A stretch of 64,000 nt of DNA from an uncultured Azospirillaceae bacterium (GCA_964655915.1 CAZZNV010000001.1:10012-74011); one strand, 5' to 3'. Positions 1,028-49,383 are shown, counted from the stretch's first letter. The notes: generated by a model not told the origin, from the letters alone. Made by a program: numbers and translations.

Positions 1028-1062
1028 AGACTGGCGAACAAGAAATATTAAGGATTATAAAG

Positions 1063-3723: not shown

Positions 3724-3886
3724 ATATTTTGACATAATTTTTTCGGAATCTGTTGTTTTGCCGTGATTGTTTTTTGAATATTTGTACACAAATCGTCTTT
3801 TTTTGTACTATTTTCTTGATTAATATTTTGCATCTATTAATATGCAGATAATTAATTGGTGTTCTAATTTTTATGAGGTTTATAAT

Positions 3887-4858
3887 ATGGAAGAGATTAT
3901 TTTCCCCAACCAGATAAGAATGTATCGCCGCCTGAGAGGTCGTTCCATGCAGGAGTTGGCTGACCATTTGAACGTTAGTTTGTCAGCTATTTCCAAAATT
4001 GAAAAAGGCTATCGTCGTGTGGATCAAGAACAGTTGGTGCGTGTTGCCGAGTTTTTGGATTGTCCTTTGCAGGAACTTTTTGTCAATGAACAAAACTCTC
4101 AACAAGAAATTGTTCAAGCTTGGCGCAGAGAGCAGGAACGCCGCAATAAAATTAATGAAAAAACAGGTCTTAAGACGCTTGGCGCCGGTCTACGGCAAAT
4201 TCGTAATGAAAAGAATTTGACCTTGATTGAGGTCGCCGAGAGCGCCGACATGACTCTTTCCGTATATCACCGTATTGAAATGGGACAGAGGGAAGTTTCC
4301 GATAAGGAATTTAAAAATATTGCTAAAGCTTTGAAAATTAGCTCCGAAGAGTTGCGTGACGAGATTAAGAGCCTTGATGAGAAAGGCATGTTGGAAGAAA
4401 TTATCCAGCGCAATGATGCTAAGTACAAGCTATTATCTAATCCTCGGGGGGCTATTGCTTCCTTTGGAAACGCTTCTCCTGACGGAATGAAAATTTCTGT
4501 TTACGGGACTGCCGGAAAAGACGGTAATATTGAGCTTGATTTTGAAGAGGAAATCAAAAAAGTTCAACGTCCGATTCAACTTTACAATAAAAAAGATGCC
4601 TATGCCGTTAATTTGTGCACACGTCGCTTGGGCTCTTTGCTTCCGACTCGCTCTATTTTGTATGTTGACCCGCAAGATGTTGTCAGCATTGGTGATATTG
4701 CTCTGTTCTATGTCAATGAGCATGAGGCAAAGATTGTCAGCATTAGAGAAGATGATGACGGCAATTTGTATGGCATTCGTTGGAATCCTGATGAAAAGAT
4801 TGTTTTGACGGATAATGATTTGCCTCAAATACATAAAGTTGTTCTGATAAGTTTGTAA
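3887..4858 (+). CDS. XRE-family transcriptional regulator with two HTH domains and a C-terminal S24/LexA-like (apparently non-catalytic) domain
   Basis: Two Cro/C1-type HTH segments (MQELADHLNVSLSAISKIEKG; LTLIEVAESADMTLSVYHRIEMG). The C-terminus (GDIALFYVNEHEAKIVSI...NLYGIRWNP) resembles the S24 beta domain. GAGG RBS 9 nt before ATG 3887; the ORF track's in-frame ATG at 3842 is an alternative start. Confidence 0.65.
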   Translation: MEEIIFPNQIRMYRRLRGRSMQELADHLNVSLSAISKIEKGYRRVDQEQLVRVAEFLDCPLQELFVNEQNSQQEIVQAWRREQERRNKINEKTGLKTLGAGLRQIRNEKNLTLIEVAESADMTLSVYHRIEMGQREVSDKEFKNIAKALKISSEELRDEIKSLDEKGMLEEIIQRNDAKYKLLSNPRGAIASFGNASPDGMKISVYGTAGKDGNIELDFEEEIKKVQRPIQLYNKKDAYAVNLCTRRLGSLLPTRSILYVDPQDVVSIGDIALFYVNEHEAKIVSIREDDDGNLYGIRWNPDEKIVLTDNDLPQIHKVVLISL

Positions 4859-7329: not shown

Positions 7330-7391
7330 AATAATAATTTACAAAGCACTTAAGCTAAACTAAATTATAAGTATTGGTTAAGGAGCAAGAT

Positions 7392-8123
7392 ATGGAAGAA
7401 AACGAAAAATTCAGCGACGGCAGCAATTACCCTTCTGGCGAGAAGTTGTGGTATGTTGATAATTATATTTTGCTAAAAGACTATTATGACAGGACTATAT
7501 CTCGCGTTTCCGCTCGCTGCATTCGTACGGGAAATATTCCGATTGAAGACTACGAACATTATGGGTACATCCTTGATGTCCTTGAAGAAATCTCGGATAC
7601 AGGCACTTATATTGTCGAACACCCCGAGTTACACGATTATGTTGAGAAAAAAATAGCTGGCGGCATGGGAAATTTGAGAAAGACACTGAAGGAATTTAAA
7701 ACAGAGCTTCGAAACAATGCTACTCCGGAGATGATTAAGCCGGATAAAAATGAATTGGATAAAATGAAAGAAGCGCTTAAGGTTGAAGATAAGGCCGTAG
7801 ATCCTACGGTTGGTGCCGGAATGTCTATGGATGAGGTTATTAATAAGTTGATGAACCAAAATCAATCCGCGTCGCAGCCTGAAGCTCAATCGGCTTCTCA
7901 AACTTCGCAGGCAAATCAGCTTCAGGCTCAACAACCTGTTGCTCAACCGACCCAAGCTCAACAAAAACCAGCTCCTCAGCAACAGCGTCCACAACCACAG
8001 TCCGGACAGCAACCTCAGGTACAATCGACATCTCCCAACAATCCGGGTGCCATGAAACCGCCGGCTTTTCAACAAGTAAATACCGCAAATTCCACTCCTG
8101 TTAAAAATGAGGATAACCAATAA
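7392..8123 (+). CDS. Hypothetical protein with Q/P/A-rich C-terminus
   Basis: AAGGAG RBS 6 nt upstream of ATG 7392; the ORF track begins at 7374. Globular N-terminal 150 aa, then poly-Q/P low complexity. Confidence 0.4.
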   Translation: MEENEKFSDGSNYPSGEKLWYVDNYILLKDYYDRTISRVSARCIRTGNIPIEDYEHYGYILDVLEEISDTGTYIVEHPELHDYVEKKIAGGMGNLRKTLKEFKTELRNNATPEMIKPDKNELDKMKEALKVEDKAVDPTVGAGMSMDEVINKLMNQNQSASQPEAQSASQTSQANQLQAQQPVAQPTQAQQKPAPQQQRPQPQSGQQPQVQSTSPNNPGAMKPPAFQQVNTANSTPVKNEDNQ

Positions 8124-8127
8124 AACG

Positions 8128-9384
8128 ATGACTAAAGCTTCGCTGTTCAAAAAAGTTTGTATATGTTCTTTCCTTTGGACACTTTTAGGATGTTCTTGGA
8201 ATGATGAGCAGGAAATCGTCGTTCCGCAGGAGCCTGTTTATTCCGCTGAAGTGAAAAAGCTTGAATATCCTTCTATTCGAACACCTAAAGGAGCCAGCAG
8301 TCTTGATTTGGAAACACCTTTGCGTTGTTTTGTAAACTGGAAATCGCAACAAATGATTTCCAGCATTCCCTACAATATTAAGGCATTTAACCTCGTCCGT
8401 AACGGTCCTAATGATATTTTGCCTCGTTTTGAAGTAACGGGTTTCTCATTCGGAACAATGCCGGCAGAAAAAGCACTACTTAAGCTCACTAAAGAGGCTG
8501 ATATAAAATTGGTTGCCAAAGATGCTCCTTATGCCAGTATTTCTGCGGATAATTTGCGCGGAGAGCTTTCTGAAGTTGTCGATATGATTACCGAAGCGGC
8601 TGAAATTTATTACACATATAATGCAAACAACAAAACTTTACGGATTAGTCGAAAGGCGAACTTTAGTCTGTATGTTCCGCAATCCCGCCCTATTTTGTTG
8701 GCTATTTTAGACGTTCTTCGCGGAGCCGGAATCACTGATTTTACGGCTGACTTTGATGACTATTCCATCACCTTTGACGCTGATTACGAGTTGAAAAACC
8801 AAATATTGAATCTTATTAATTATTTCGAGGAAAATCCGATATTGGTAGCTTTTGATGTCAAAGTTTTTACGATTTATCCTTACAACGGACAAGATGTTGA
8901 ATGGCAGCAAATGTTCAATGTCTTTGATTATGGGGTTATAAAAAGCGCCAAGACAGGTGTTCTTGGACGGATATTAACGACATCGAGCGATATAAATGTT
9001 GATACTCTGAGAGGCTTTATCGGCGGACAGGCACGAGTAGATTCTATTGCCGAAGGGAAGTTTGTTGTCCCTAACTTGTGGTTTTCCAGATTTGACATCG
9101 GGAAATGTGCTCAAAGAACATCCATGGAGGCGGGACTTTCTATTTTGGCGAAAGCATCTTTTGAACAGAATGATAAAATATTCAGCAATATTACTTTAGA
9201 AGCTCAAAACGGAGAAATTACTCAATTTGATATTCGAAGTCGTCTTGGCGAAAACTTCTTAATCATTGGTATTCCTAACGAAATTTTTGGAGTTAAGACA
9301 CCAAAATCGGAGACTGTTGTTTTCATGGTGCCTCGCATTATCAGGACACTGAAAACATCGAAACATCTTGAAAAGCATTTATAA
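8128..9384 (+). CDS. Hypothetical lipoprotein
   Basis: Signal peptide with lipobox (FLWTLLGCSW). An in-frame ATG at 8107 overlapping the upstream stop is an alternative start. No recognised domain. Confidence 0.4.
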   Translation: MTKASLFKKVCICSFLWTLLGCSWNDEQEIVVPQEPVYSAEVKKLEYPSIRTPKGASSLDLETPLRCFVNWKSQQMISSIPYNIKAFNLVRNGPNDILPRFEVTGFSFGTMPAEKALLKLTKEADIKLVAKDAPYASISADNLRGELSEVVDMITEAAEIYYTYNANNKTLRISRKANFSLYVPQSRPILLAILDVLRGAGITDFTADFDDYSITFDADYELKNQILNLINYFEENPILVAFDVKVFTIYPYNGQDVEWQQMFNVFDYGVIKSAKTGVLGRILTTSSDINVDTLRGFIGGQARVDSIAEGKFVVPNLWFSRFDIGKCAQRTSMEAGLSILAKASFEQNDKIFSNITLEAQNGEITQFDIRSRLGENFLIIGIPNEIFGVKTPKSETVVFMVPRIIRTLKTSKHLEKHL

Positions 9385-9392
9385 TTTTTAGT

Positions 9393-10184
9393 ATGGTGAT
9401 TGTAATGGATATGCAAAATACGGATAACTCTAATTCTTCTGCCGGTCGCCCTCTTTTAAGAAAGGTTAAGCGTCCTATCAATAAGATGCAACCTATGAGT
9501 TCTGCATCAGCACCATCTCAGCCTTCTCAGGGGTTTGAGCGTTCGGAAACACCGTCTTTTAATACCCAAGAGCAGTATGTTGAACAACCGGCTTCGGCGC
9601 CTTCATCCAAACCAATGATGCCAACGAACAACCCTTTTGTTCAACAGATGACATCTCAATCCGATAGTGCGCCGACTTTTGATGTTAACAGCTTTCTTGA
9701 TGAAGAAATAAATCTTCCCGCTAATTATTCGAACACGAAGACTTCCTCTCAAGAGCAACTACGCTTCATTAATGAAGAAGAATATGAAAAAGAAATTTCA
9801 GGAGATACACAATCTCCGTTACCGGAATTTTTGAATAAAAAAGTATTAGTTTTAATGGGTGTGGTTCTGTTTTTCTTGGGATTTGTAACTTCTAAAGTTT
9901 TCTTTAGCGAGGCAAAGGTTGTCAGAAACGGTTTGCAAGGGGTTGTTATTAATCCCGAAGTTCCTAAGGGACGGCCGCGCTGTGGTGTTGCCGAAAAAAT
10001 GCAAGGCTGTGTTTTGTATATGATGAATCCGCAACGGCAGGAACTTAACGCCAGAGATTTTTATGATTTGGCTTCACAATTAACCGGTCGCCAGCGTTTT
10101 ATTATTGAAACGGGAAACATGCGTTATTCTAATACTAAGATACGGCCGGGAGATATTGTTCAATTAAATATACCGCCTTTGTGA
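9393..10184 (+). CDS. Hypothetical single-pass membrane protein
   Basis: ORF with one TM helix (VLVLMGVVLFFLGFVTSKVFF), S/P/Q-rich N-terminal half, and a bidirectional terminator downstream. Confidence 0.35.
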   Translation: MVIVMDMQNTDNSNSSAGRPLLRKVKRPINKMQPMSSASAPSQPSQGFERSETPSFNTQEQYVEQPASAPSSKPMMPTNNPFVQQMTSQSDSAPTFDVNSFLDEEINLPANYSNTKTSSQEQLRFINEEEYEKEISGDTQSPLPEFLNKKVLVLMGVVLFFLGFVTSKVFFSEAKVVRNGLQGVVINPEVPKGRPRCGVAEKMQGCVLYMMNPQRQELNARDFYDLASQLTGRQRFIIETGNMRYSNTKIRPGDIVQLNIPPL

Positions 10185-10189
10185 TAAAG

Positions 10190-10220
10190 TAAAAAGCTGG
10201 ATTTCTCCAGCTTTTTATTT
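10190..10220. terminator. Bidirectional Rho-independent terminator between convergent genes
   Basis: Perfect hairpin AGCTGGA-TTTC-TCCAGCT flanked by an A-run (left) and a T-run (right). Confidence 0.65.
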
Positions 10221-11191
10221 TATGTAACTTCGGTAACGGCGCGTAGGTTTCCATCTCGATTAATTTGGACAACCCTTAACTTCTTACGCATCTCTTCAAT
10301 CGTTTTATAACGATCCATTGACGGGTTTGTATGCAGAATACGATCAACAAAAGCCTGATATGCGGCTTCGGAGCTTTCGGCGTGGATGGTCGCAAAACAG
10401 TTATCGTGACCTGACCCCATCAATTCCCAAATAGTTCCGGCATTGTCTGTTGAAATCTCTCCCCCTAAAATAGCGTCCGGTGTAAAACGAACAACCAAGT
10501 TAATAACTCCGGCGTAGTCCATTTTGTTCGTTTGCTCCGTACGAGATAACACCAAGTGAACACGATTGGGGTGAGGAACAATCAATTCTCTGGCATCTTC
10601 AATCGTTAATATGCGCTTGTGAATGTCCAATATCTTCAACAGATTGTTCAAAAAAGTTGTTTTACCCGTTGCCGTAGCGCCTGAAACAAGTATGTGGTCA
10701 CCTCGTTTAATACTTAACAGCAAGCGCTCATAAGGATCTTCCGGATCTTTTATATCTTTTAGAGGGTTGATTTTATGCAACGTTTGACCTTGTGCCAAAC
10801 CATAATCACCCAAACCAAAAGCCACATCATCCGCATGGACACGAATGGTCAGCGCTATTCCGCCTCGTTGAGCATCTTCCGAATCATACTCAACATTACG
10901 TCCACAAATAGCAGAAAAACGGTGCCCGCCCGGCAATGTTGCGTATAAGGTCGGATTCCCCAATAACGGATCAAACGGCAGTTCGTAAACATTGGAAATA
11001 ATATAAAACAAATTCGTCAGATATTCCTTGGACAGCTTCTCATCTTCGTGCATAACCCACGGATAAGCCCGTTTACCGCGCAAACGCAGCCATACCTGCC
11101 CTGCGTGATTGATTGCGACTTCTTCTATATTTTCCTGATTATACCAATAAGATAAAGGACGTAAAACAGATTCAAGAATTGTAAATGCCAT
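10220..11191 (-). CDS. virB11: VirB11-family T4SS ATPase
   Basis: Walker A (VSGATATGKTTFLN), Asp box (RILTIEDARE) and His box (GHDNCFATIHAES); about 323 aa. It is the last gene of the minus-strand vir operon. Confidence 0.85.
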   Translation of the reverse strand: MAFTILESVLRPLSYWYNQENIEEVAINHAGQVWLRLRGKRAYPWVMHEDEKLSKEYLTNLFYIISNVYELPFDPLLGNPTLYATLPGGHRFSAICGRNVEYDSEDAQRGGIALTIRVHADDVAFGLGDYGLAQGQTLHKINPLKDIKDPEDPYERLLLSIKRGDHILVSGATATGKTTFLNNLLKILDIHKRILTIEDARELIVPHPNRVHLVLSRTEQTNKMDYAGVINLVVRFTPDAILGGEISTDNAGTIWELMGSGHDNCFATIHAESSEAAYQAFVDRILHTNPSMDRYKTIEEMRKKLRVVQINRDGNLRAVTEVT

Positions 11192-11202: not shown

Positions 11203-14200
11203 TTAAAACAATGCCGGAACATTACTGTCTGATTGCGTTTGTGCTCCTGTCGGGGCGCCCATTCCTGCTGACGAAGAGGATGGCGGAGGCGGCGGAGCGA
11301 TAAAGTTAGTTCCCGCGGACGAGTTATCTGATTTTGATTTTCCACCATCAATAAGAGGTGTCGATTTTACAGCGTTAACATCTTCACCTTCGGCATCATA
11401 CACAACATCCCCGGCAGTTCCAGCGCTTTGGTATTTTTTTATTTCAGCCTGTTTTCTTTCCGCGGCCTTTTCCTCATCATCTATCAAGACACCACCCTTA
11501 GCTAATTCGCCCTGTACTCTAGCTTCTTCATCGTTATCAATGGTACGCAACCACAAGTCAGACATCGGGTAAACGATAATTCTTGTTCCGGCCGGGATAT
11601 AGGTCATAGGACGAATATTGGATTTATCCGCCAAAATCTCATCAAACACCTTATTCATTTCATTTAAGAAGTTTTGACGCGCATCATTCGCCGCTTCCTG
11701 ACGAGGCGTTTCCGTGCTACTGTCACTGTCTTTTTTAGGCGCCATAAAATAGGAGGTGGCGCTGGTTAAGGTTGTTGTCATAACCGGTAAAGTATATTTT
11801 TTGAATAATTGCTGATCTACATATCCTAAGGCACCGGCTCGACCTTGGGCGTCTGCGGTCAAACCGTTTAACATAAACAATGAGCCATCCGGACGAATTA
11901 GTCTTTCCCATGAAATTTGAACACGAGCCGACTCAGAAGTTGCTTCGGCACTGGCAGACAAACCGCCTAAACTTCCCATTAAACGGCTTCCCGCGGGAAT
12001 AATTACGTTACGACCTTCTTCGGCGTAAACATTCCGCTCAACAAACGCTGTAATGGGAGCAGGGTTATTACTGTCAATAGCGCGGGCAATAACCGCCGGA
12101 ATTGGTTTATCCGCAAAAATCATTGAGCTTAAGTCAACTCTCCATGAAGAAATAACCTTATTAACCCCTTGTTCGCTCCAATCCTTTTGCATTCCGTCAA
12201 AAGCTTCTTTACGGGTTCCGTTACTTATCTTACCGACACTCATATTTTTTCTACGTTCACCCATAGCGGTATTCAGAGCAGCTTGTCTTACGGGGTCATA
12301 CCTCTCTCCGGGACCAAAACCGCCTCCCGGCCCCAAATTCCCCGTAGGACCGGCACCTGTTCCATAAGCGCCACCGTTACCGAAAGTTCCAGGAGGAACA
12401 AACATGCCACTGGTGTCTGCTTTTTTAACCTCTTCAATACCGATCAAGCTTCCTTCATCATCAATAATCAAACCATCGGGCATTTTTCGTCCGAGATAAT
12501 TACCGTTTTCATCAACAACGGTTCCGTCTTCTAATATCTCACCTAAATAATCACCATCCGGCGTCAGCGCAATTCCCAATGACTTACGATATTCGCCATT
12601 CTCCAAAAACTCCAAAGCGGGGGATATATCTTCTTCATCCTCAAGAGGTTCCGGCTGAGGAGCTTTTTCATACCAATTAGAGCCTATTCCGCCAATAATA
12701 TTTCCATTTGCATCAACGGCATCACCATTTTCGCCTATTCGCCCAATAACGTTACCGTCTTTATCCAAAACCGTACCATTGTCTGTGGCATAACCGATAA
12801 GATTTCCGTCTTTATCGTATATTTCTTTTTTATTAAGTGAATCGCCTAAAACATTGCCTTTACCATCTACAAAATTTCCGTTTTCGTCCACACTGCCAAT
12901 GATATTTCCATCTTTATCAACAACATTCCCGTTCTCATCCAAATAACCAACTAAGTTTCCATCTTTATCAAATATCATTTTGCGTTTTGCCTGCGGAGAA
13001 ATGCGGCTGTAATACTGCAACGGCGAAGCCTGAGCAATCCACTCTCCATTTGAATTTTTAACTCTTCCGTCCTCACCTAAATCGCCGACTTTAGCCCCTT
13101 TAGAATCTATAACCACACCATCAAAGGACAACCATCCGATAACAACATTGTCCTTATCCCTAATATTATAATCTCTGTTTCCTCTGGCTAAAACGTTCAA
13201 CTTTTTATCTACCAAAAAGCCTCTATCCAAAGTGCCCATATTTTGGTTATTAAAGTTAACGACATCGCCTTTTCTGCTAATGATACCGATAGCCTTACCT
13301 TCTGCATCATACATATAGAAATCGTAAAGCGCGTACCCTATTTTTCGGCTACCATCGGCAACATAACCGTCGTAATCAACATTACCCAGCTTACGGTTAT
13401 CCGAGGACATAACGGAGCCATCATCCATAACGCGTCCGATAAATTTATTTTCTAAATCAAACGCTATTTTATACTTAAACAGATTACCTATCGGCTTTCC
13501 GACTTCAGAGTTAACGTTACCGTTCGGTTGCTGATACCCGATAACATCACTATCCTCATCAACAACCACACCATCTAACACCGTTCGTCCGATAATTTTC
13601 CCTTTGAAGTCTATTACCGGTGTATAATTAACCGTTGCACCGACAACAACGCCGTCATTATTTTTTACTTCTCCAAAACGGTTTACGCACCCCAACTGGC
13701 GATTTTCGAAATCACGAACTTTACCGTCGGCATTTACAAAACCTATAACTTTCCCATTATAATCAATTATGGGGAGTGTTTGAACAGAAAAACCGATTAT
13801 ACTTCCGCTATCACTCAGGGCTTGTCCGTTTGCCAACAGCCGCCCTAAATATATACCCCGATAATTTTGAACATTACCTTGCGGTCCAATCACACCTATT
13901 ATCTCACAACCATCATTACTTACTGTGCCAAATCCTTGTAAATGACCATTCAAAATATTGTTATTATCCACAGACCAACCATGTTCAGCGATACGTCCTA
14001 TTTTCGCACCACTTAAATCTTTGACATCACCGTTTACATCAGCATAACCAAGGAGATTCCCGTTTAATGAATTAACAATATTGGAGGCATATCCCCAGCC
14101 ATTAACAGGCATAAACCCTTGACTATTGGGCTTATTCGTTTTGTATATGGACATATCAGGAAGAATTTTTCCTACGGTATTCATACTTTTATCAACAACA

Positions 14201-15738
14201 AGATTTTGTTGTGTTAAGTGCCCGAGATTTCCGCCTTTATCTGCAATTGCCAAAAAAGCTTTTATTAATCCGCCTGTCAAAACTCCCGGATCAGACACCA
14301 TGTAACCGGAAGCCAAAACTCGACCGATAACATTACCTGCTCCGGCTTGCACCATTCCCTCAAAATCAAGTCTGCCCAAGGGATTGCCGTATGCATTGTA
14401 TAGAGCGGCCAATGCAAACGAACTCCCCGAAACGTTCCCATCTAAATCAAAAACATATCCGAACGGAGAAACAACCCTTTTTCCGCCATTGTCAGAGAAA
14501 TTACTGCCTATTCCTGTTATTCCCAAAACATTATTTTGATTCCCATAGGCAATAAAACTATCCATCACGGCCCCAATAATGCGACCGGACAGATCATAAG
14601 CATAGTTACTAATCATGTATCCGATAGGAGTGCCCGACAAGGCTATCACCGTACCGTTTGGTAAAGCGTGACCGCGTAAACTTCCTTTATAATCGAAGAC
14701 AGGACCGGAACGACTCAATTGTCCGATAACGCTCCCATTAGCAGAAACGATGACGCCACGAGCCCCCACCAGAGCCGTTATCTCTTTTGCGCGCGCCAAG
14801 TTCCCTTCCGGCATCAGGCGGCCGATATATTTTCCTTCCAGATTTGTTGCTGTTGCGGATATTTCTTCACCATATCCTATTATCTCACCATCTAAAGAAA
14901 CAATGGCACCATCAGCCCGCATATGACCTATCAGATTTTCATTTTCAATAACTTCGCCATTATACGTCACAAACCCCATATAATAGCCGTCATTATCAAA
15001 AGCGTATCCCGATTTAACAATTCTTCCGATAACTTTATTTTGGCTGTCATAAGCATAACCGTTCGCCTTGATATGCCCGATAATCTGAGAATCGAAATCC
15101 GAAACGCTTCCTCCCGGAACAACACTTCCGATAAAATCCCCATCAAGTGATACAACCATCTTTGATGAAATCAGACGGCCGTCTAAAATATATTCATTTC
15201 CCACATTGCGATAAGCGTATCCGTCAGGGGTTACCACACCTATCGACTGCCCCTGAAGGTTTGTGTAATTTCCGTCACCCGTTACACGACCGACCGTACT
15301 TCCGTCATCTGAATAAACCAAACCGGGGAACAACACAGCACCGATAATATCAAAATAGTCGTTTACCACCAAACCATTAGGCAAAACCTTACCGACAACT
15401 TGTCCGGACGCCAGACGAACAGAACCGTCATTATTCACCTTACCTAAAAGTTTTGCATCATTACCGATTGCAACACCCTGAGGAATAACACCACCTATAA
15501 GCTTTCCGTCAAAATTAACGATTAAGCTGTCCGCCGTCACGTTTCCGATTAACTGGTTATCAAACCCGACAACTTTACCGTCCGGGATTACTTTTCCGAG
15601 TAAATCACCATTAAAATCAATAGCTGTAATTTCTTGCGCGAATACTTGAGTAGAGGTTAGAACAGCCATCATTCCGACAGCCCACCTCAATACACTTACT
15701 TTTCGCAAAAATTTTCGGCAGCTATACCAAAATTTCAA
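11203..15738 (-). CDS. virB10: Giant VirB10/TrbI homolog: N-terminal signal-like segment, roughly 1100 aa of tandem ~17-aa repeats, C-terminal VirB10 beta-barrel domain with S/P-rich tail
   Basis: C-terminal region (NVIIPAGSRLMGSLGG...ARVQISWERLIRPDGSLFML...GALGYVDQQL...TYIPAGTRIIVYP) matches the conserved VirB10/TrbI domain. Upstream are dozens of repeats of the type DGKVVGFDNQLIGNV / VVDKDGNIIGSVDENGNFVDGKGNVLG. Confidence 0.75.
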   Translation of the reverse strand: MKFWYSCRKFLRKVSVLRWAVGMMAVLTSTQVFAQEITAIDFNGDLLGKVIPDGKVVGFDNQLIGNVTADSLIVNFDGKLIGGVIPQGVAIGNDAKLLGKVNNDGSVRLASGQVVGKVLPNGLVVNDYFDIIGAVLFPGLVYSDDGSTVGRVTGDGNYTNLQGQSIGVVTPDGYAYRNVGNEYILDGRLISSKMVVSLDGDFIGSVVPGGSVSDFDSQIIGHIKANGYAYDSQNKVIGRIVKSGYAFDNDGYYMGFVTYNGEVIENENLIGHMRADGAIVSLDGEIIGYGEEISATATNLEGKYIGRLMPEGNLARAKEITALVGARGVIVSANGSVIGQLSRSGPVFDYKGSLRGHALPNGTVIALSGTPIGYMISNYAYDLSGRIIGAVMDSFIAYGNQNNVLGITGIGSNFSDNGGKRVVSPFGYVFDLDGNVSGSSFALAALYNAYGNPLGRLDFEGMVQAGAGNVIGRVLASGYMVSDPGVLTGGLIKAFLAIADKGGNLGHLTQQNLVVDKSMNTVGKILPDMSIYKTNKPNSQGFMPVNGWGYASNIVNSLNGNLLGYADVNGDVKDLSGAKIGRIAEHGWSVDNNNILNGHLQGFGTVSNDGCEIIGVIGPQGNVQNYRGIYLGRLLANGQALSDSGSIIGFSVQTLPIIDYNGKVIGFVNADGKVRDFENRQLGCVNRFGEVKNNDGVVVGATVNYTPVIDFKGKIIGRTVLDGVVVDEDSDVIGYQQPNGNVNSEVGKPIGNLFKYKIAFDLENKFIGRVMDDGSVMSSDNRKLGNVDYDGYVADGSRKIGYALYDFYMYDAEGKAIGIISRKGDVVNFNNQNMGTLDRGFLVDKKLNVLARGNRDYNIRDKDNVVIGWLSFDGVVIDSKGAKVGDLGEDGRVKNSNGEWIAQASPLQYYSRISPQAKRKMIFDKDGNLVGYLDENGNVVDKDGNIIGSVDENGNFVDGKGNVLGDSLNKKEIYDKDGNLIGYATDNGTVLDKDGNVIGRIGENGDAVDANGNIIGGIGSNWYEKAPQPEPLEDEEDISPALEFLENGEYRKSLGIALTPDGDYLGEILEDGTVVDENGNYLGRKMPDGLIIDDEGSLIGIEEVKKADTSGMFVPPGTFGNGGAYGTGAGPTGNLGPGGGFGPGERYDPVRQAALNTAMGERRKNMSVGKISNGTRKEAFDGMQKDWSEQGVNKVISSWRVDLSSMIFADKPIPAVIARAIDSNNPAPITAFVERNVYAEEGRNVIIPAGSRLMGSLGGLSASAEATSESARVQISWERLIRPDGSLFMLNGLTADAQGRAGALGYVDQQLFKKYTLPVMTTTLTSATSYFMAPKKDSDSSTETPRQEAANDARQNFLNEMNKVFDEILADKSNIRPMTYIPAGTRIIVYPMSDLWLRTIDNDEEARVQGELAKGGVLIDDEEKAAERKQAEIKKYQSAGTAGDVVYDAEGEDVNAVKSTPLIDGGKSKSDNSSAGTNFIAPPPPPSSSSAGMGAPTGAQTQSDSNVPALF

Positions 15739-15740
15739 CT

Positions 15741-18700
15741 TTAATTCCTCCGGTTCTTTGCAACTTCCTGCAAAACATAACCCGCAATCTTTCTATCCAA
15801 ATCAACGAATATACCGTTGCTTTTAATTCGTCCGACCATTGTTCCACCGGCATCAACGACACTCCCGTCAGACAACAGTCTTCCTTTGTACTGCCCGTCA
15901 TTCCCGAGTATGGTGCTACCAATTTTAAAGACTTTTCCTAATATCTTATCGTTAGAATCAACAGCCAAACCGCCTGACAAGCTCTTTCCTATGATACTAC
16001 CATCAATGCCCATGATTTTTCCATCAAAATTTACATAACCCACAACTTTATCTGTGTTATCGATAACAATATCTCCGCCAGCAATTTCACCGATTAATTT
16101 TCCGCCCAGGCTCAAGACTTTTCCGTCAGATAAAACTCTACCGATGACAACGTTAGCGTTATTTATAACGCTCCCGTTTGGCAAAACAGCACCTATAACA
16201 TTACCTCCAAAGTCTATAACACCACCTCTGTGCAGCAAACTCATATTCATATCTGTCGCCCCGCCGGGTAAGACGGCCGTTACAGTATCGCCTTTCAGAT
16301 CAACAACATCACCGAGAGAATTCAGATGTCCCCTGTAATTCCCCCAAATATCAATCATAATGTCTTCGGGCAAAATATCACCGACCACTTGATTATCTTT
16401 ATTAATCGCCTTTCCATCAAAGCTGCTGTTTCCGACAATCGCTCCTTCCAAATCAACCAAGCGTCCGTTAGATGTGGCATATCCGATGAATGAACCATCA
16501 TAACCAATTGCCGGCCCGGTTTTAATTACCGCCCCGCCATAAGCACCTTTTCGGTCAATATACACTCCTTTAGCGTTTAATTTTCCAAGTTGATCACCGT
16601 AGCGACTGAAAATGCTGCCGTCATAATCAGCAACACCTATAATATCCCCCGTTGTGCTGACCACTTCGCCACGGGGTGCCAAATGCCCCAAAACGTTTCC
16701 GTAAAAACTTAAACCGTCTCCCTTCAGCTGTCCCTGGCTGATACCTTGAGTGTTATAAACATGCCCGTCTGGGAAAACCGTTCCGATTAAATTTCCCGAA
16801 GAATCGACAATTGTTGATTTGGCATCCAGTGCAACACCTATTATTTCATTTTTTTCATTAACCAACAAATTATTCGCGGTTAATCGTGCTGAAGGCTTAC
16901 CATAGATTTTAACTTCTGCTTTATTATCAACCTGATTCAAATAATTACCATTTAAATCAAAAGCATATTTCGAACCAACCGCACGACCAATATACACACC
17001 CTTATTGTTAAAAACGTCACCCCAAATACTAACGCAACCCACAGGAAGCTTAGCATCATTTACCACGAGATTATCATCATTGATTTTACCAATGTAATCA
17101 CCGTCAAAATCAACGGCGACACCGCTCTTTTGCACAGCACCGATTAAATCGCCTTTTTCATCGAGAACCGTTCCATCCGGATTAACACACCCCACATACC
17201 TGTTGGACTTGTCTTTAACAATTCCGTTATTGTCTGCTGTTCCTAAAAAACGGCAGTTATTATCAAAAACGCGACCTGATTTTACAATTTCTCCGATATA
17301 TTTTCCTTCATTATCCGTTACAACGCCTTCATAGTTGATACGATAAGAAGTCTCCTCGTTGCCTTTTTTTATTTTTCCGTCTCTGTCTAAATAGCCGATT
17401 TGCTTGCAACCGTAGCCAACAACAAAGCCTCCCGGAACGAGCTTGGCCACGATTTTTGCTCCGTTAGGTTCACGAACCAAACCGCTTGACGTGACGCGTC
17501 CCACAATTTGATGCATGTTATTTTCTATCGAACCATCATTTTGCAGTGTTCCCAATAAATTCCCCGAAGGCGTAATCGGCAGACGGCTTACAGCAACAAT
17601 AGAACCTAAAACATTACCGTCACGGTCATAAACATTGCCGTTTTCATCGACATACCCTATAACATTGCCGTTAAAATCGTAAACCTTGCCGTCTTTATCG
17701 ACATATCCCAGTATTTTTCCGTTCTTGTCCAGTGCTAAATTTACATAATCTCCGGCTTTCCCTATAACATTACCGCTCAAATCGACAATAGAACCATCTT
17801 CTTGCATCTTTCCGATGACATTACCGTCAAAATCGCGAACATTGCCGCTTTCATCAACATAACCGATAACATTGCCGTTTTCATCATACGCCAAACGAAC
17901 CTTTTGCCCAGTACTTCCGATAGCGCCTTTAGTAATAACATTGCCATTTTCATCAATATAACCAATGATATTGCCATTACTATCAACAACACTGCCGTCA
18001 GGCATTGTCACACCGAGAACATTACCGTTTTCATCAACCGCAACACGTCCCGGTTGGGTAACCGAACCGATAACATTACCGTTTGCATCGACAACCGTGC
18101 CATCAGCCAAAACTCGGCCGATAACATTACCGTTTGCATCGACAACCGTTCCGTCGGGCATAATCTTACCGATGATATTACCATCTTTGTCGTAAACAAA
18201 ACCCGTTTCTACCGCTTTACCTATAACATTGCCGTTTGCATCAACAACAGTACCATCCGGCAACACATGTCCGACAACCTTACCATCTTTATCTACAACC
18301 GTACCGTCCGGATTCACGTAGCCTATCAGATTTCCAAATTCATCGTATACCGCTCGACGATTTTCAGCAACACCGATAACATTGCCTTCATCATCAACAA
18401 TCAGCCCGTTCTCACCGACACGCCCTATAATATTTCCACTGGCATCTCGAACAAAACCGTCTTCATCAATAACCCCGATAACCTTACCATCAGGACCTAT
18501 TGCATACCTGAGCGCTTTAGCATCTTTGTCTGCACCGCCGGAAGCAATAGCACCTTCACAAATTTTACAATCATCTTTAACGTAAGCTGTTCCCGTAACG
18601 GGTATTTTGGCTGATTTAGAGTTTTCTTGCCCCAGATTTAATTCATGCCACGATATAACGAAATTATTCTGAACATTTCCGGCAATAACCGGCGTCCATC

Positions 18701-19154
18701 CCATTGAAATATGGCATGTTCCTTCACCATTAAGCGTCTTTCCCGAACAACCGTCTTCAAAAGAAAAACCATCTGCCGGCGGCTCTGCTAACTCAACCTT
18801 TAATATACGAACGGAAGCTTTTCCGTTTGTTCCTAAGGTTAGAACATTTTTGGCATCTGTACCTAAAACAACCTGCCCCATCTCCACCGGATCAGGTGTC
18901 GCCGTTAGAGGAATTTCACCTTCCATAGTGCTAAATTCAATATTTCTGGTTAAAGGCGCTTCCGTTACCTCGCCTAAAACATCGGCATTATCCGTAAACA
19001 CAGGATCTTCAAACTCATTATCCTGATTATTACTCTTTATAAGCAGAACAACACCGGCAATAAAGATAATCATCGAGGCAATACCAATCGCCAGAATTAT
19101 GCGATTGGTTTTTTTTACATATTTTTCGGAACGTGTTAAATTATCTTTAGCCAT
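15741..19154 (-). CDS. Bitopic membrane protein (1137 aa) composed almost entirely of the same ~17-aa DGxVVDxxGNVIG repeats; no VirB homology detected outside the repeats
   Basis: N-terminal cytoplasmic stretch, one TM (IILAIGIASMIIFIAGVVLLI), then repeats such as LPDGTVVDANGNVIGKAVETGFVYDKDGNIIGKIMPDGTVVDANGNVIGRV. Lies between virB9 and virB10 with 3- and 7-nt intergenic gaps. Confidence 0.5.
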   Translation of the reverse strand: MAKDNLTRSEKYVKKTNRIILAIGIASMIIFIAGVVLLIKSNNQDNEFEDPVFTDNADVLGEVTEAPLTRNIEFSTMEGEIPLTATPDPVEMGQVVLGTDAKNVLTLGTNGKASVRILKVELAEPPADGFSFEDGCSGKTLNGEGTCHISMGWTPVIAGNVQNNFVISWHELNLGQENSKSAKIPVTGTAYVKDDCKICEGAIASGGADKDAKALRYAIGPDGKVIGVIDEDGFVRDASGNIIGRVGENGLIVDDEGNVIGVAENRRAVYDEFGNLIGYVNPDGTVVDKDGKVVGHVLPDGTVVDANGNVIGKAVETGFVYDKDGNIIGKIMPDGTVVDANGNVIGRVLADGTVVDANGNVIGSVTQPGRVAVDENGNVLGVTMPDGSVVDSNGNIIGYIDENGNVITKGAIGSTGQKVRLAYDENGNVIGYVDESGNVRDFDGNVIGKMQEDGSIVDLSGNVIGKAGDYVNLALDKNGKILGYVDKDGKVYDFNGNVIGYVDENGNVYDRDGNVLGSIVAVSRLPITPSGNLLGTLQNDGSIENNMHQIVGRVTSSGLVREPNGAKIVAKLVPGGFVVGYGCKQIGYLDRDGKIKKGNEETSYRINYEGVVTDNEGKYIGEIVKSGRVFDNNCRFLGTADNNGIVKDKSNRYVGCVNPDGTVLDEKGDLIGAVQKSGVAVDFDGDYIGKINDDNLVVNDAKLPVGCVSIWGDVFNNKGVYIGRAVGSKYAFDLNGNYLNQVDNKAEVKIYGKPSARLTANNLLVNEKNEIIGVALDAKSTIVDSSGNLIGTVFPDGHVYNTQGISQGQLKGDGLSFYGNVLGHLAPRGEVVSTTGDIIGVADYDGSIFSRYGDQLGKLNAKGVYIDRKGAYGGAVIKTGPAIGYDGSFIGYATSNGRLVDLEGAIVGNSSFDGKAINKDNQVVGDILPEDIMIDIWGNYRGHLNSLGDVVDLKGDTVTAVLPGGATDMNMSLLHRGGVIDFGGNVIGAVLPNGSVINNANVVIGRVLSDGKVLSLGGKLIGEIAGGDIVIDNTDKVVGYVNFDGKIMGIDGSIIGKSLSGGLAVDSNDKILGKVFKIGSTILGNDGQYKGRLLSDGSVVDAGGTMVGRIKSNGIFVDLDRKIAGYVLQEVAKNRRN

Positions 19155-19160: not shown

Positions 19161-20840
19161 TTACTGCGTCCTGACTACACTGCAAAATACGCCGTTACGA
19201 CCGAGGAGACCACAAGTTTTATCCCCTTCATCCAAACTTCTAATCGGACCGACACGCAAATGGAACAGTTCCTTTCCTTGACCATCGGCCGGCGCATCAA
19301 CCGAGAAAAACGGCTCATAACGCCCAAGGTCTGCCTTATATTTGCGTGACAGAGTATCCCACAAATCCTCCAAGTTGCTTACATTGCTATCTGTGCCCAA
19401 CTCAATAGATATGTTGGCGCTTCCGCCGTCAGAGAAACCCGTGCCGTAACTATATTGTTGAGCATACGGATTGGCCGAGGCCGAACCGCCTTGATTATTA
19501 CTTATCCGTTGCATTTTGCTGTAATCAAAATTGGCACCGGCATTTTGCATGCTATTCATTCCGCCTTGCGGCATCATAGACATTCCGACGCCGCCGTTGC
19601 CTTGCTGGTACTGTGGGACAACAATCTGGCTTTGTCCGACTTGAACATCATACTGACCACGGACAGCATCATTTCCGATTCCGGCGCCACCCCAACTGCC
19701 TCCGGCACCCGTTCCAGCACCTGCACCATACGGAGATGCTGCACTACCTTGGGTTCTTTGCTGCTCCGGAAGAGGTGCCGGAACCTCCCATTGCGGCGGC
19801 AGATAGTCAGCAGAATCAATCGCAAATTCGAGCCCGCTCTCATCTGAACGGCGCAGTTTTATACAAATGATACGTTTGCCGTTTCTTAAAACCATGTCAC
19901 CGACACCTTCAACGATAATCAAACGATTATCGGGTCCCTTTGTACGGAAACCAACCGGAACCTCCACACGCTCAACAATCATACTGACAACAGGGCGTTG
20001 TAACATGTTCAGGGATTTTTTGCCCAAATCAATATATGTAAAGATGTCATCTCTCCAAACACGTTCAGGAGCAATCACAACATCATCAGGGTTAGGTACA
20101 TAAACCTCCAAATCAAACCGAAACTTCGAAGGATCCAAAGGAATTTCTTTCAACCAATCGCTCTTTTGAAAACGTCGCGTATATGTCGAATCCACAGATT
20201 TTCCGCCAGACGTCGCACCGCCACCGGCGCCACCTCCGCGGAGCGATCCGAAGCTTCCGCCGCCGTTTCCGCCTTCTTGCCCCCCAATGACGTCAATATC
20301 AATAATGGAATTCGTCAGACGCTCCGTATTAACGGCCTCACTCTTTACATAAAAGACATAACGGTTTCCCGAGCGCCCAAAAACAATGATGTTTGTGTCA
20401 ACACCGACATTTGCCCCTTTGCGCGGATACAAAAGTAAACTGCTCGGCCCGGAAATCTGTCCATCAAAAGTGGCACTGTCGCCGATAAAGACGTCCTCAA
20501 TCATTTCCCATGTCGGAAAATTCACCAATGTAATCATTCCTTCACGCAGACGTATCGGCAAAATCAAATCCGGTGACCAATAATAACGAGAATATGCCGG
20601 ACGGCTCTGACCTTCGCCTAAATTTTGCAAAGGATCAAGCCACGCCTCTTGCGTCATACCCAACGAGTTGAAACCCGCATAACCGATATTCATCGGCTGA
20701 TAATTACCCTGAGCTTGTTCCGCGCTGGCGTCCAGCATTCCCTGATCAACCTGCGCATATACGTGAACACCTCCCGTCACACCGAAAAGTAAAGCCAAGA
20801 ATAAAAATTTTACTAGTTTGCGAGTCATCAATTTACCCAC
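19161..20840 (-). CDS. virB9: VirB9/TrbG/CagX-family T4SS outer-membrane core protein with internal Gly-rich insertion
   Basis: Signal peptide. N-terminal domain motif typical of VirB9 (ITLVNFPTWEMIEDVFIGDSATFD...LLLYPRKGANVGVDTNIIVFGRSGNRYVFYVKSE). Sits between virB8 and virB10. Confidence 0.65.
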   Translation of the reverse strand: MGKLMTRKLVKFLFLALLFGVTGGVHVYAQVDQGMLDASAEQAQGNYQPMNIGYAGFNSLGMTQEAWLDPLQNLGEGQSRPAYSRYYWSPDLILPIRLREGMITLVNFPTWEMIEDVFIGDSATFDGQISGPSSLLLYPRKGANVGVDTNIIVFGRSGNRYVFYVKSEAVNTERLTNSIIDIDVIGGQEGGNGGGSFGSLRGGGAGGGATSGGKSVDSTYTRRFQKSDWLKEIPLDPSKFRFDLEVYVPNPDDVVIAPERVWRDDIFTYIDLGKKSLNMLQRPVVSMIVERVEVPVGFRTKGPDNRLIIVEGVGDMVLRNGKRIICIKLRRSDESGLEFAIDSADYLPPQWEVPAPLPEQQRTQGSAASPYGAGAGTGAGGSWGGAGIGNDAVRGQYDVQVGQSQIVVPQYQQGNGGVGMSMMPQGGMNSMQNAGANFDYSKMQRISNNQGGSASANPYAQQYSYGTGFSDGGSANISIELGTDSNVSNLEDLWDTLSRKYKADLGRYEPFFSVDAPADGQGKELFHLRVGPIRSLDEGDKTCGLLGRNGVFCSVVRTQ

Positions 20841-20843: not shown

Positions 20844-21578
20844 TCACGATTTGTTCAAAGTCAAAGAATATTTGTTTACCGTAAACCCGGTAGGATTTGT
20901 AAGCCTATCCCCATATTTTACGATTTTTTTACGAAAATTCACACCTAAAGAAGCTGTCCAATAATTAATAGACGGCTGATCAGATTCCGGATACATATCC
21001 GTCGTTTCATATTCCACCTGCCAAATACCATCAGCCAATTCATTTACCGAAAGTATCTTAACATTACGAACCAGACCTCTGTTCCGGATAATAGTAAGCG
21101 CTTTGTTAGCCGTGTTATCCAAGAAATCCTGATAAACATCTCCGGCAGACATCTCCTGAATCGGACCACCCGGCATCCACCTGGCTTCCATTTCAGGAAT
21201 ATCCGTGCTGAATGTACTCCGCAGCAACACATATTCCCTGACAAAGACCTCTATAACTGATTTTATATTCTGCAAACCGTCTTTAACCGGCTGAATATCA
21301 TAAACCTGCTCCGATCTGTTTTGAAAAGTCAGCAGATACGGCTCTACCCGATAGAGCGGCATCACTTGGTAAACCGCCAAAATCAAAACAATATTACAGC
21401 AAATACTCAAGGCGCTGATGATAGCAAAGGCACGCGCCGTCCACAGATAACGCTTTTCTCCGGCATTAGACACCATCATGCTATTTTTTTGCGAAACCGA
21501 GGAAGACGCCGGACGCTGTCCCATTCCTTCCCCCAACAAGCGTCGCCCGCCGGAATTTCCCTCTATTCTTTCAGCCAT
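20844..21578 (-). CDS. virB8: VirB8-family protein (copy 1)
   Basis: N-terminal cytoplasmic region, one TM (AFAIISALSICCNIVLILAVYQV), and periplasmic NTF2-like domain with VirB8 signatures (EVFVREYVLLRSTF; NPTGFTVNKYS). Confidence 0.8.
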   Translation of the reverse strand: MAERIEGNSGGRRLLGEGMGQRPASSSVSQKNSMMVSNAGEKRYLWTARAFAIISALSICCNIVLILAVYQVMPLYRVEPYLLTFQNRSEQVYDIQPVKDGLQNIKSVIEVFVREYVLLRSTFSTDIPEMEARWMPGGPIQEMSAGDVYQDFLDNTANKALTIIRNRGLVRNVKILSVNELADGIWQVEYETTDMYPESDQPSINYWTASLGVNFRKKIVKYGDRLTNPTGFTVNKYSLTLNKS

Positions 21579-21592: not shown

Positions 21593-21811
21593 CTAAATTG
21601 TCGCAACAAACCAATCCGGCAAATTCTTCGGAAGCTCTATTTCCATACATGCGCAGGGCGACAACTTCAGCTCATCGCTCCCTTTACCGATACCAACCGG
21701 CTCAGGCTCGTAATACGAACCAAAACAACCTGAAAGCAACAAAACACCCAAAACAGCTACGACTTTCAAACACTTATTCATCCACGAACCTTTCGTCAGA
21801 TTTAAATACAA
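21593..21811 (-). CDS. Small lipoprotein, VirB7-like
   Basis: 72 aa. Signal peptide plus lipobox (LLLSGCFGS). It is placed between two virB8 genes, and size and context fit VirB7, but there is no sequence-level proof. Confidence 0.45.
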   Translation of the reverse strand: MYLNLTKGSWMNKCLKVVAVLGVLLLSGCFGSYYEPEPVGIGKGSDELKLSPCACMEIELPKNLPDWFVATI

Positions 21812-21880: not shown

Positions 21881-22624
21881 TTAGAGAATATCAACCTCTG
21901 TTTGGGAATAGCGCGTTACGGTAAAGCCCAGAGGATTTAATAAACGGCGCCCAAAAAATTGACGCTCCTTGATAAAACGTGCGGAAAGCGAAGCCGTCCA
22001 ATAACGTGTCCTTAACACGGCTTGACCATTACTGTCGTTATACAGATCATATGTTTTAAAATCCACTTTCCAAATAGGGCTTTTTGCACCGCCTTGTCGA
22101 TTGACCGAAATAATCTCCACTTCTCGCACAAGAACCTGATTAATCATATCCACCCATCCTTTATGGACAGTTTCCTCAAAAGGTTCGTATACTTCTAACG
22201 AAGACATAAAGCTTACAATTCCACCGTACCACCAACGAGATTTCATCTCGCTTTGGTCATTTATAACCGTATTGCGATAAATAACATACTGCTTAATAAA
22301 GGTTTTCATCAGCTTTTCTTTAGAAGCCATAGTCTCGGTGATGGGTTCGTTACGCACGATACCCTCAGAACTGTCTTGTTTGATTATTAAAAACGGTTCG
22401 ACTCTAACCATTGGCGCCAAAGAAAACAGCGCTAAAGAAGAGCTAATCATCACCAATAAAGAAACGCACGCCACAAAAATGAAAAAACGAGACATCCAGA
22501 TATAGTAAAAATAACGCAGACCCTCTTTCTCATTTTCTACATGTTCTATAAACGCGTAGTTTTCCGCGCCGTCGGTTCCTATGGCTATTCGAGCGTTTTC
22601 ACTTCCTATTTGTCTGTTATCCAT
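21881..22624 (-). CDS. virB8: VirB8-family protein (copy 2)
   Basis: One TM (FFIFVACVSLLVMISSSLALFSLAP). VirB8 motifs (KQYVIYRNTV; NPLGFTVTRYS). Confidence 0.8.
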   Translation of the reverse strand: MDNRQIGSENARIAIGTDGAENYAFIEHVENEKEGLRYFYYIWMSRFFIFVACVSLLVMISSSLALFSLAPMVRVEPFLIIKQDSSEGIVRNEPITETMASKEKLMKTFIKQYVIYRNTVINDQSEMKSRWWYGGIVSFMSSLEVYEPFEETVHKGWVDMINQVLVREVEIISVNRQGGAKSPIWKVDFKTYDLYNDSNGQAVLRTRYWTASLSARFIKERQFFGRRLLNPLGFTVTRYSQTEVDIL

Positions 22625-30778: not shown

Positions 30779-30779
30779 A

Positions 30780-33244: not shown

Positions 33245-33323
33245 AATAACCTCCCGTCCTGTCTTCTGCCGCTTCATTTATTATAACAGATTTTTCCTTC
33301 ATAATAAACGAAATTGACGCTTT

Positions 33324-49364: not shown

Positions 49365-49383
49365 AACCGAAGGATAGAAAGAA

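Follow-up and report, generated by a model that had tools for sequence, protein, structure and literature searches.

A minus-strand virB-type operon of a type IV secretion system (T4SS) spans 10.2-22.6 kb of a stretch of 64,000 nucleotides (nt) from an uncultured Azospirillaceae bacterium (GCA_964655915.1 CAZZNV010000001.1:10012-74011). This whole stretch is hereafter called the window, and all coordinates refer to it in plus-strand numbering. The operon has the gene order virB8, lipoprotein, virB8, virB9, A, B, virB11, both in the window and in 71 related loci, and the cluster contains virB4, virB7-like, virB9 and virB11 genes. The slot between virB9 and virB11 (or virD4) that is characteristic of the VirB10 family is occupied by a pair of genes, here named A and B. 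The virB9/cagX and virB11 homologues that flank this pair keep the same position across all loci examined. The features of the pair and of its two neighbors were determined from open reading frames (ORFs), domain searches and AlphaFold2 (AF2) models, the latter scored by the predicted local distance difference test (pLDDT), and are given below with lengths in amino acids (aa).

19161-20840, minus strand: virB9/cagX homologue, 559 aa, directly upstream of A (Pfam CagX, E=2e-10)
15741-19154, minus strand: gene A, ORF of 1137 aa with an ATG start, proposed inner-membrane-anchored N-terminal part of a split VirB10
19101-19154, minus strand: A aa 1-18, basic cytoplasmic tail with the motif LTxS(E/D)(K/R)Y(V/I)(K/R)KTNR
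19038-19100, minus strand: A aa 19-39, single transmembrane (TM) helix, N-in/C-out (Kyte-Doolittle maximum 2.95)
18582-18908, minus strand: A aa 83-191, membrane-proximal periplasmic ASH/PapD-like (choice-of-anchor-D-like) beta-sandwich (AF2, Foldseek)
15765-18509, minus strand: A aa 216-1130, beta-flower array of 17-aa hairpin units, ~900 aa (Pfam PF21785, PF21784)
15739-15751, minus strand: A-B junction, with a GGAGG Shine-Dalgarno sequence at 15751-15747 inside the end of A, the TAA stop at 15743-15741 and a 2-nt spacer at 15740-15739
11203-15738, minus strand: gene B, ORF of 1511 aa with a TTG start, predicted Sec-exported C-terminal part with the outer-membrane barrel
15634-15738, minus strand: B aa 1-35, predicted Sec-type signal peptide (MKFWYSCRKFLRKVSVLRWAVGMMAVLTSTQVFA followed by QE, read from the TTG start; cleavage between VFA and QE)
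15154-15633, minus strand: B aa 36-195, module at the mature N-terminus, where conservation within the B array is highest (70-orthologue alignment)
12424-15633, minus strand: B aa 36-1105, beta-flower array, ~1070 aa (Pfam PF21785, PF21784)
12289-12423, minus strand: B aa 1106-1150, Gly/Pro-rich linker, predicted disordered (AF2 pLDDT <50)
11527-12150, minus strand: B aa 1197-1404, VirB10/TrbI C-terminal beta-barrel with two-helix antenna (Pfam, NCBIfam, PDB, AF2, Foldseek)
11206-11526, minus strand: B aa 1405-1511, charged Ser-/Pro-rich tail ending PPPPP...VPALF, predicted disordered (AF2 pLDDT <50)
10220-11191, minus strand: virB11 ATPase homologue, 323 aa, directly downstream of B (NCBIfam VirB11, E=7e-41)

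The VirB10 domain lies in B. The Pfam TrbI model (PF03743) matched aa 1207-1397 over profile positions 2-188 of 188 (E=1.2e-35), the NCBIfam models ComB10 (8e-34) and T4SS_VirB10 (2.5e-30) matched below their equivalog cut-offs, and PDB sequence matches were obtained with ComB10 (1e-18), TrwE, TraF and Xanthomonas VirB10. The AF2 model of the C-terminal 416 aa has a mean pLDDT of 55, as it includes the disordered linker and tail, and its core alone was used. The pLDDT of this barrel core is 75-87, with long helices at model residues 214-236 and 250-277. A Foldseek search of the PDB with the core gave VirB10-family C-terminal domains for all of the top 25 matches (TrwE, CagY, Xanthomonas VirB10, ComB10, TraF, F TraB and DotG). 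The barrel and antenna of VirB10 are thus present in B, and A contains no such domain. More than 1000 homologues of B were found, the best 120 of which are all 1470-1770 aa long and 45-71% identical. Databases label the proteins “hypothetical”, “DUF3659” or “5-fold beta-flower protein”, not VirB10.

A canonical VirB10 is one chain of about 380-450 aa comprising a cytoplasmic tail, a TM helix, a Pro-rich linker and the barrel. The barrel polypeptide of the window lacks the first two elements: B has no TM segment, its Kyte-Doolittle maximum over 12 residues at the N-terminus being just 1.8, and the tail and TM helix are found on A. The bitopic organization of VirB10 is therefore complete only in the A-B pair taken together, and in the single-chain relatives described below. 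In place of a Pro-rich linker between TM helix and barrel there are beta-flower arrays, with a short Gly/Pro-rich segment before the barrel that is kept in the orthologues of B.

As claimed in the initial annotation of this DNA, the 1137-aa upstream protein has a VirB10-like N-terminal topology without a VirB10 C-terminal domain. A has one TM segment and no Pfam TrbI match, and a PDB sequence search with A gave zero matches. The AF2 model shows a helix over aa 8-41, and exactly one N-terminal TM segment with positive-inside charge was found in 70/70 A orthologues, the median net charge of the A-type flanks being +2 before the TM segment and -6 after it. An acidic linker predicted to be disordered (aa 43-77) leads to the beta-sandwich, which was modelled with a pLDDT of ~90 and carries the invariant Cys136 and Cys147. 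Its ASH/PapD-like fold was assigned from Foldseek, where the top PDB matches were the PapD-like domains of CEP192 and HYDIN (E 5e-7 to 2e-6); the NCBIfam choice_anch_D match was weak (9.5e-6, below cut-off). In an exhaustive search, the sandwich segment was also matched by many multi-repeat proteins. The A orthologue of locus L001 is 55% identical over the full length. The exact 1137-aa sequence of A is absent from the protein collection; this points to another choice of start codon, or to an annotation missing from the source record.

The remainder of both proteins consists largely of the same repeats, as had also been noticed initially. Bflower_2, Bflower and DUF3659 all matched A and B, and the matches to PF21785 and PF21784 exceed the gathering thresholds in A (E=1e-71 and 5.5e-27) and in B (E=2.2e-59 and 1.1e-20). 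The repeat period is 17 aa (51 nt), and a BLASTP comparison of A with B gave 27% identity over ~1000 aa (E=3e-68). The beta-flower fold was described in 2023 (Durairaj et al.) on the basis of small proteins of ~100 aa that stand alone and whose function is unknown, along with a [DNEQ]xxG hairpin-tip motif (PMC10584680). At the sequence level, A and B share both the strong model matches (clan CL0395) and this motif. Unlike in the beta-flower proteins described so far, dozens of hairpin units are found inside a T4SS core subunit. No tandem repeats were detected at the DNA level in A or B with Tandem Repeats Finder (TRF), the 51-nt units being only 60-80% identical. The plus-strand GC skew is strongly negative (-0.16 to -0.32) over the minus-strand T4SS cluster (12000-40000) and strongest at A and B, in keeping with coding strands made G-rich by the Gly, Asp and Val codons of the repeats.

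Census of the split and the signal peptide of B

A word-indexed homologue search with full-length A was swamped by the repeats and missed the closest A orthologues, and a census of loci was used in its place. One genome per species was scanned, relatives were found in 418 species, and the best 80 loci were examined. All 80 come from metagenome-assembled genomes (MAGs) of gut Alphaproteobacteria from human, ruminant, rabbit and chicken sources, with record titles including “Proteobacteria bacterium CAG:495”, “Candidatus Scatocola” and “Azospirillum sp. UMGS63”. The upstream region is included in 71 of these loci, and the order virB9-A-B-virB11 was found in 71/71. The arrangement is therefore not a chance feature of the window, since it recurs in every related species-level locus examined.

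The junction between the two genes is tight. In the window, B starts with TTG at 15738-15736, GGAGG lies 8 nt upstream of this start codon, and the gap between A and B is exactly 2 nt, in agreement with the initial annotation. Among the 70 pairs with a matched mature-start motif, 69 have a distance of -4 to +4 nt between the A stop and the B start, 2 nt being the most frequent value. In a locus whose B is only 46% identical to B of the window, the gap is again 2 nt. The frame of B relative to A differs among species, 0, +1 and +2 all being common. The sole irregular locus of the 80 is L057 (1-6402; “uncultured Azospirillaceae” ERP123703_co5_20), where three repeat ORFs of 699+, 205 and 1194 aa reflect an assembly or frameshift error or a real pseudogene.

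The initial annotation had considered that A and B could be one giant VirB10 gene broken by a frameshift. Such a break, whether caused by sequencing, assembly or a recent inactivating mutation, would explain the small gap and the different frames of the two ORFs, and single-chain giant VirB10s do exist elsewhere. However, the same split was present in all 71 independent species-level loci, which come from many studies and assemblers; B has a conserved signal peptide and Shine-Dalgarno sequence, and both proteins are conserved over their full length. A frameshift or pseudogene was therefore rejected on the basis of the census and the conserved signal peptide, and we regard it as extremely improbable. 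The juxtaposition of the two genes might also suggest programmed recoding, in which A and B would be fused by ribosomal frameshifting or stop-codon readthrough. The variation in gap and in relative frame implies no conserved slippery site, and in a fusion protein a signal-peptide-like segment would lie deep within a periplasmic chain, which leaves the conservation of AxA before Q unexplained. Conserved recoding was rejected because the relative frame varies between species, and its likelihood is minimal.

The N-terminus of B has the characteristics of a Sec/signal peptidase I (SPI) signal peptide, with n-, h- and c-regions and small residues at -3 and -1. In 120/120 of the best B homologues, a variable basic-hydrophobic N-terminus ends in AxA and is followed by an almost invariant QEITAI(D/N)FNG. 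Over 70 loci, the pre-sequence measures 28-35 aa with a basic n-region, and the median uncharged run before the predicted site is 17 residues. Position -1 is A (64 loci) or S (6), position -3 is A/V/S/T/L and position +1 is Q in 63, so that the -3/-1 rule is respected in 70/70. Mature B is predicted to give the semi-tryptic N-terminal peptide QEITAIDFNGDLLGK. The signal-like N-terminus reported in the initial annotation is thus present, but not as the 14-residue segment MMAVLTSTQVFAQE, which stems from the start of database entry P0001. This public protein of 1489 aa, otherwise identical to B, starts at an internal ATG (MMAVL...; 15673-15738). The database start is probably misannotated, and the n-region of the signal peptide is consequently cut off. 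We prefer a signal peptide of 35 aa read from TTG because its length and its cleavage site between AxA and Q match those of the orthologues.

An uncleaved signal anchor is the alternative to cleavage. In that case B would remain bitopic like other VirB10s, and A would be an additional inner-membrane paralogue. The fairly long pre-sequence and an uncharged run of up to 25 residues in some orthologues are compatible with this. On the other hand, the small -1/-3 residues are kept in every locus while the rest of the segment is free to vary, which is the pattern of a cleaved peptide. The median uncharged run is also shorter than the TM segment of A, the low hydropathy of the B N-terminus in the window points in the same direction, and B lacks the cytoplasmic motif kept by A and by all single-chain forms. 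We consider the signal anchor improbable.

Single-chain relatives and the origin of the split

Among the homologues of A, an A-type N-terminus and a C-terminal TrbI domain occur on one chain in two, P0164 (1930 aa) and P0209 (1507 aa). An exhaustive search with the first 215 residues of A yielded eight further single-chain forms of 1498-2363 aa (P0266, P0284, P0288, P0316, P0325, P0333, P0341 and P0352), the VirB10 domains of which were confirmed with a profile built from B-type domains. The other matches were A-type proteins, fragments and unrelated multi-domain proteins with an ASH-like sandwich. A fused ORF, which the initial annotation had recommended seeking in related genomes, is represented by ten giant VirB10s of 1498-2363 aa in related lineages and by none in the 71 loci of the split clade.

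All ten single-chain proteins have one N-terminal TM segment (10/10), in a layout of cytoplasmic motif, TM helix, ASH-like sandwich, 1300-1900 aa of beta-flower repeats, Gly/Pro linker, barrel and tail. A aligns from residue 1 of these proteins (aa 1-1130 in the case of P0164), and B aligns to their C-termini. The cytoplasmic motif is kept in the A orthologues, in P0164 and P0209, and in P0266, P0284, P0316 and others (in these as SSSEQYVKKSNR), and Y12, C136, C147, W153, P155, Q162, N164 and W169 are invariant in the alignment of the N-terminal module. In the three loci of single-chain forms examined (L002, L003 and L084; 3/3), the giant gene is the sole gene between virB9 and virB11. These relatives, found in the same slot, support the initial proposal that VirB10 was re-partitioned, with a repeat protein anchored in the inner membrane on the one hand and a VirB10-domain protein bearing a signal peptide on the other. 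Two findings had been named as contrary to that proposal, namely a normal TM anchor in B with none in A, and orthologues revealing unrelated genes; neither was observed, as the TM segment is in A and none is in B.

The single-chain giants thus share with A+B the N-terminal module, repeat type, linker, barrel, synteny and, mostly, the ...P.LF end. They differ in that a single chain of 1498-2363 aa, free of any internal signal peptide, stands against the two genes and 2648 aa in total of the window's clade. The C-terminal tails can be compared along their length. About 107 aa follow the barrel of B, consisting of a charged stretch, PPPPP and a Ser-rich stretch, and a 12-sequence alignment showed the final P..LF (P413, L415, F416) to be kept in at least 90% of sequences. 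Split forms end in (V/I)P(A/Q/E)LF, and most single-chain forms in P.LF, LF, MF or IF, the exceptions being PPPPPGY in P0209 and P0333 and a Lys-rich end in P0352. The aromatic last residue of the B tail recalls the C-terminal signals of outer-membrane proteins.

In a neighbor-joining (NJ) tree built from the VirB10 domain, the 87 non-identical split forms make up one monophyletic group, with the single-chain forms paraphyletic around it. From this monophyly, the sequence data indicate that the split is derived, that it arose once in the sample and that it is maintained across a large clade. Its presence in every species-level relative examined, together with the monophyly, further argues that it is under selection.

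Two routes to the split were considered. We slightly favor an origin in which a giant VirB10 gene was duplicated in tandem and the two copies were then truncated reciprocally: the barrel would have been lost from the upstream copy and the anchor from the downstream copy, which would also have acquired or reshaped a cleavable signal peptide. Simple fission inside the array is less favored. In whole-protein BLAST comparisons, A and B tile the single-chain forms from opposite ends with an overlap of 300-600 aa. A landmark of four Cys in the A array (aa 583/634/656/707, spacing 51/22/51) recurs at 517/568/590/641 of P0316. B aa 40-173 are 45% identical, ungapped, to aa 359-492 of P0341, and at most 37% identical to anything in A. 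The Cys landmark of A and the N-terminal module of B thus both map to the N-proximal third of single-chain arrays, which argues for duplication. The initial annotation had offered a functional split and an ancestral duplication as separate explanations; they are not mutually exclusive, since the split appears functional and is conserved, while duplication is a slightly favored, unproven origin.

A VirB10 proposed to consist of two proteins

We propose that A and B together constitute the VirB10 of a chromosomal T4SS, encoded by two translationally coupled genes, with a probability of roughly 75%. B would be exported by the Sec pathway and cleaved between AxA and Q. In the outer-membrane core complex, its barrel would assemble with VirB9 and with the VirB7-like lipoprotein, the array extending into the periplasm. 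A would stay in the inner membrane in an N-in orientation, its cytoplasmic motif facing the VirB4/VirB11 side. The A tail would then perform the task of the VirB10 N-terminus, i.e., contact with the inner-membrane complex and the ATPases. Finally, the arrays of A and B would associate non-covalently and restore a bridge from the inner to the outer membrane, an association in which the highly conserved N-terminal module of mature B would probably take part.

The conservation profile is consistent with such an association. Over 70 orthologues, column identity is 0.76-0.87 in the N-terminal 160 aa of mature B, against 0.81-0.86 in the barrel and 0.28-0.5 in the mid-array, and B aa 36-195 are a candidate docking surface. 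The C-terminal 140 aa of A are likewise conserved above the A mid-array. Strict A-B adjacency, apparent translational coupling, the retained N-terminal module of A and the conserved ends of the two arrays (B N-terminus, A C-terminus) support the bridge indirectly.

Several points weigh against this proposal. Contact between A and B in the periplasm is inferred from indirect evidence, and the cleavage of B is deduced from the -3/-1 pattern and the length of the h-region. The cytoplasmic motif of A has no detectable sequence similarity to the N-termini of characterised VirB10s, its equivalence to them being based on position and on the single-chain relatives. No VirD4 coupling protein or relaxase was recognised in the window. 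The NJ tree was midpoint-rooted, without outgroup or support values. A plus mature B amount to 2613 aa, versus at most 2363 aa in any single-chain form found. Moreover, blocks of 150 aa map non-uniquely to the single-chain arrays because all hairpin units resemble one another, which blurs the exact evolutionary route.

The main rival to a re-formed A-B bridge is a decoupled system, in which B would be an outer-membrane-only VirB10 and A an independent periplasmic scaffold, for instance a beta-flower protein binding the cell wall or lipids. Besides the indirect nature of the support for contact, this would agree with the breadth of the beta-flower family, for which an association with membranes or the cell wall has been suggested (PMC10584680). 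A 1128-aa VirB2-like ORF of the window also ends in a beta-flower-like unit, and the repeats may bind other partners. Against this, A keeps the exact N-terminal module of the single-chain VirB10s, cytoplasmic motif included, and is never found apart from B in the 71 loci, with apparent translational coupling. In addition, the mature N-terminus of B is constrained like the barrel, suggesting a specific partner. A decoupled system seems to us unlikely, though a good deal less so than an uncleaved anchor.

Returning to A and B as one VirB10, the pair can be compared with known systems. The canonical VirB10/TrbI proteins (A. tumefaciens VirB10, pKM101 TraF, R388 TrwE, Xanthomonas VirB10 and H. pylori ComB10) share the barrel and antenna with B, the virB9-virB11 slot with the A-B pair and the N-in bitopic topology with A. 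Unlike in these proteins, the anchor and the barrel are here on separate polypeptides, and the barrel protein has a predicted cleavable signal peptide. Some 2000 aa of beta-flower repeats, distributed over A and B, take the place of the Pro-rich linker, and the pair has an ASH-like sandwich and a long C-terminal tail in addition.

Expanded VirB10 homologues are known from two systems. H. pylori CagY, of the Cag T4SS, is a giant VirB10 homologue with large repeats N-terminal to the barrel, like B, and its structures 6x6k and 6odi matched the C-terminal domain of B in Foldseek. CagY is a single chain, and its repeats are unrelated in sequence and consist of direct repeats at the DNA level that recombine. 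In contrast, the repeats of A and B are beta-flower hairpins without recent tandem repeats at the DNA level, and the protein is split. A CagY-like recombination of DNA repeats is therefore unsupported, given the TRF result and the low identity of the units. In Legionella, DotG/IcmE of Dot/Icm, a type IVB secretion system (T4BSS), has repeats between the TM anchor and the barrel, as here, and the DotG dome structures 9ngw and 7muq also matched the B C-terminal domain in Foldseek. DotG is made as one chain, its repeats are of the pentapeptide type, and it is not known to be split or to have a signal peptide.

In the open-access full-text literature, we found no split VirB10, no VirB10 with a cleavable signal peptide, no link of beta-flower or DUF3659 to VirB10 or T4SS, and no account of a T4SS for the gut Alphaproteobacteria RF32, CAG-495 and Scatocola. 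Matches to “split into two” were unrelated to VirB10. A 2025 review describes VirB10 as the one subunit known to connect the inner-membrane complex physically with the outer-membrane core complex, and as relaying ATP-dependent signals to the outer-membrane gate (PMC12857230). Whether this subunit has been cut into an inner-membrane sensor and an outer-membrane gate, communicating only through the non-covalent beta-flower arrays of a giant periplasmic scaffold, is in our view evenly balanced. If so, the scaffold would be unlike any in the T4SS structures solved to date, and VirB10 would not have to be covalently continuous for the inner-membrane ATPases to be coupled to the outer-membrane channel. 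An architecturally new, expanded T4SS would then be at work in a widespread clade of Alphaproteobacteria from human and animal guts.

With anchor and gate as separate proteins clade-wide, these bacteria could provide a natural test of whether one continuous chain is needed or periplasmic contacts are enough, and close single-chain relatives are on hand for direct comparison. The beta-flower fold would gain its first clear place in a molecular machine, with ~2000 residues per A+B pair in the core of a secretion system. This conserved, chromosomal, expanded T4SS is carried by uncultured Alphaproteobacteria that are abundant in the gut, namely CAG:495, “Candidatus Scatocola” and MAGs related to them, obtained from humans, ruminants, chickens and rabbits.

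Other genes of the window

Apart from the genes listed above, the cluster encodes VirB3, VirB4 and three VirB2-like pilins, one of which is the 1128-aa fusion listed below. The remaining features of the window are the following.

20844-21578, minus strand: second virB8 of the gene order, downstream of the lipoprotein (Pfam VirB8)
21593-21781, minus strand: VirB7-like lipoprotein, 62 aa, lipobox LLSGC (small-ORF translation)
21881-22624, minus strand: first virB8 of the gene order, upstream of the lipoprotein (Pfam VirB8)
22635-33277, minus strand: six consecutive ORFs between virB4 and virB8 (638, 194, 460, 174, 709 and 1383 aa) with signal-peptide-like N-termini
36224-39610, minus strand: 1128-aa VirB2/TrbC-pilin-like fusion ORF with a signal peptide and two hydrophobic segments (Pfam TrbC E=0.002, below threshold)
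39647-40039 and 40214-40555: two ordinary-sized VirB2-like ORFs just upstream of the 1128-aa ORF
2-3723, plus strand (opposite to the virB cluster): two VirB6/TrbL-like ORFs, one of 341 aa at the window edge (E=2.5e-4, below threshold) and one of 886 aa (E=7.5e-8)
3842-4858: double helix-turn-helix regulator, after the VirB6/TrbL-like ORFs
42701-50508, plus strand: separate pilus/secretion cluster with a TcpQ-like protein, a secretin, two unassigned ORFs, a T2SSE-type ATPase (E=3e-64) and a T2SSF platform protein

The virB8/lipoprotein/virB8 trio was also found in L001 and in the unsplit locus L084. In the 559-aa VirB9/CagX homologue, the CagX profile matches aa 84-328 only; canonical VirB9 is about half as long. 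The VirB9 orthologue of the single-chain locus L084 (8190-9917) has a weak match to SPOR, a peptidoglycan-binding domain.

In the 1128-aa ORF, the pilin-like part is followed by ~950 aa of Lys/Glu-rich and Gly/Asn/Ser-rich low complexity and, at the C-terminus, by a beta-flower-like unit of ~65 aa (VNADGKIVGYVDEDSKVKDLKGRFLGDLMEDGTVINKDGEIV; Pfam Bflower E=0.0014, weak). From the shared repeat type, this protein may dock onto the arrays of A or B. The six ORFs at 22635-33277 gave no Pfam match; they are candidates for lineage-specific T4SS components (VirB5-/VirB1-like proteins, core-complex accessories) or for substrates.

Next to virB11, and convergent with it, lies a four-gene block on the plus strand (4984-10184; 781, 249, 425 and 263 aa; no Pfam match). 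A block of similar gene sizes in L001 (16118-21118; 773, 202, 424 and 227 aa) is co-directional with virB11, which suggests an inversion between the window and L001, the two blocks being likened by gene sizes only. The separate cluster at 42701-50508 looks like a type IVb/Tad-like pilus or a type II secretion system (T2SS)-like system.

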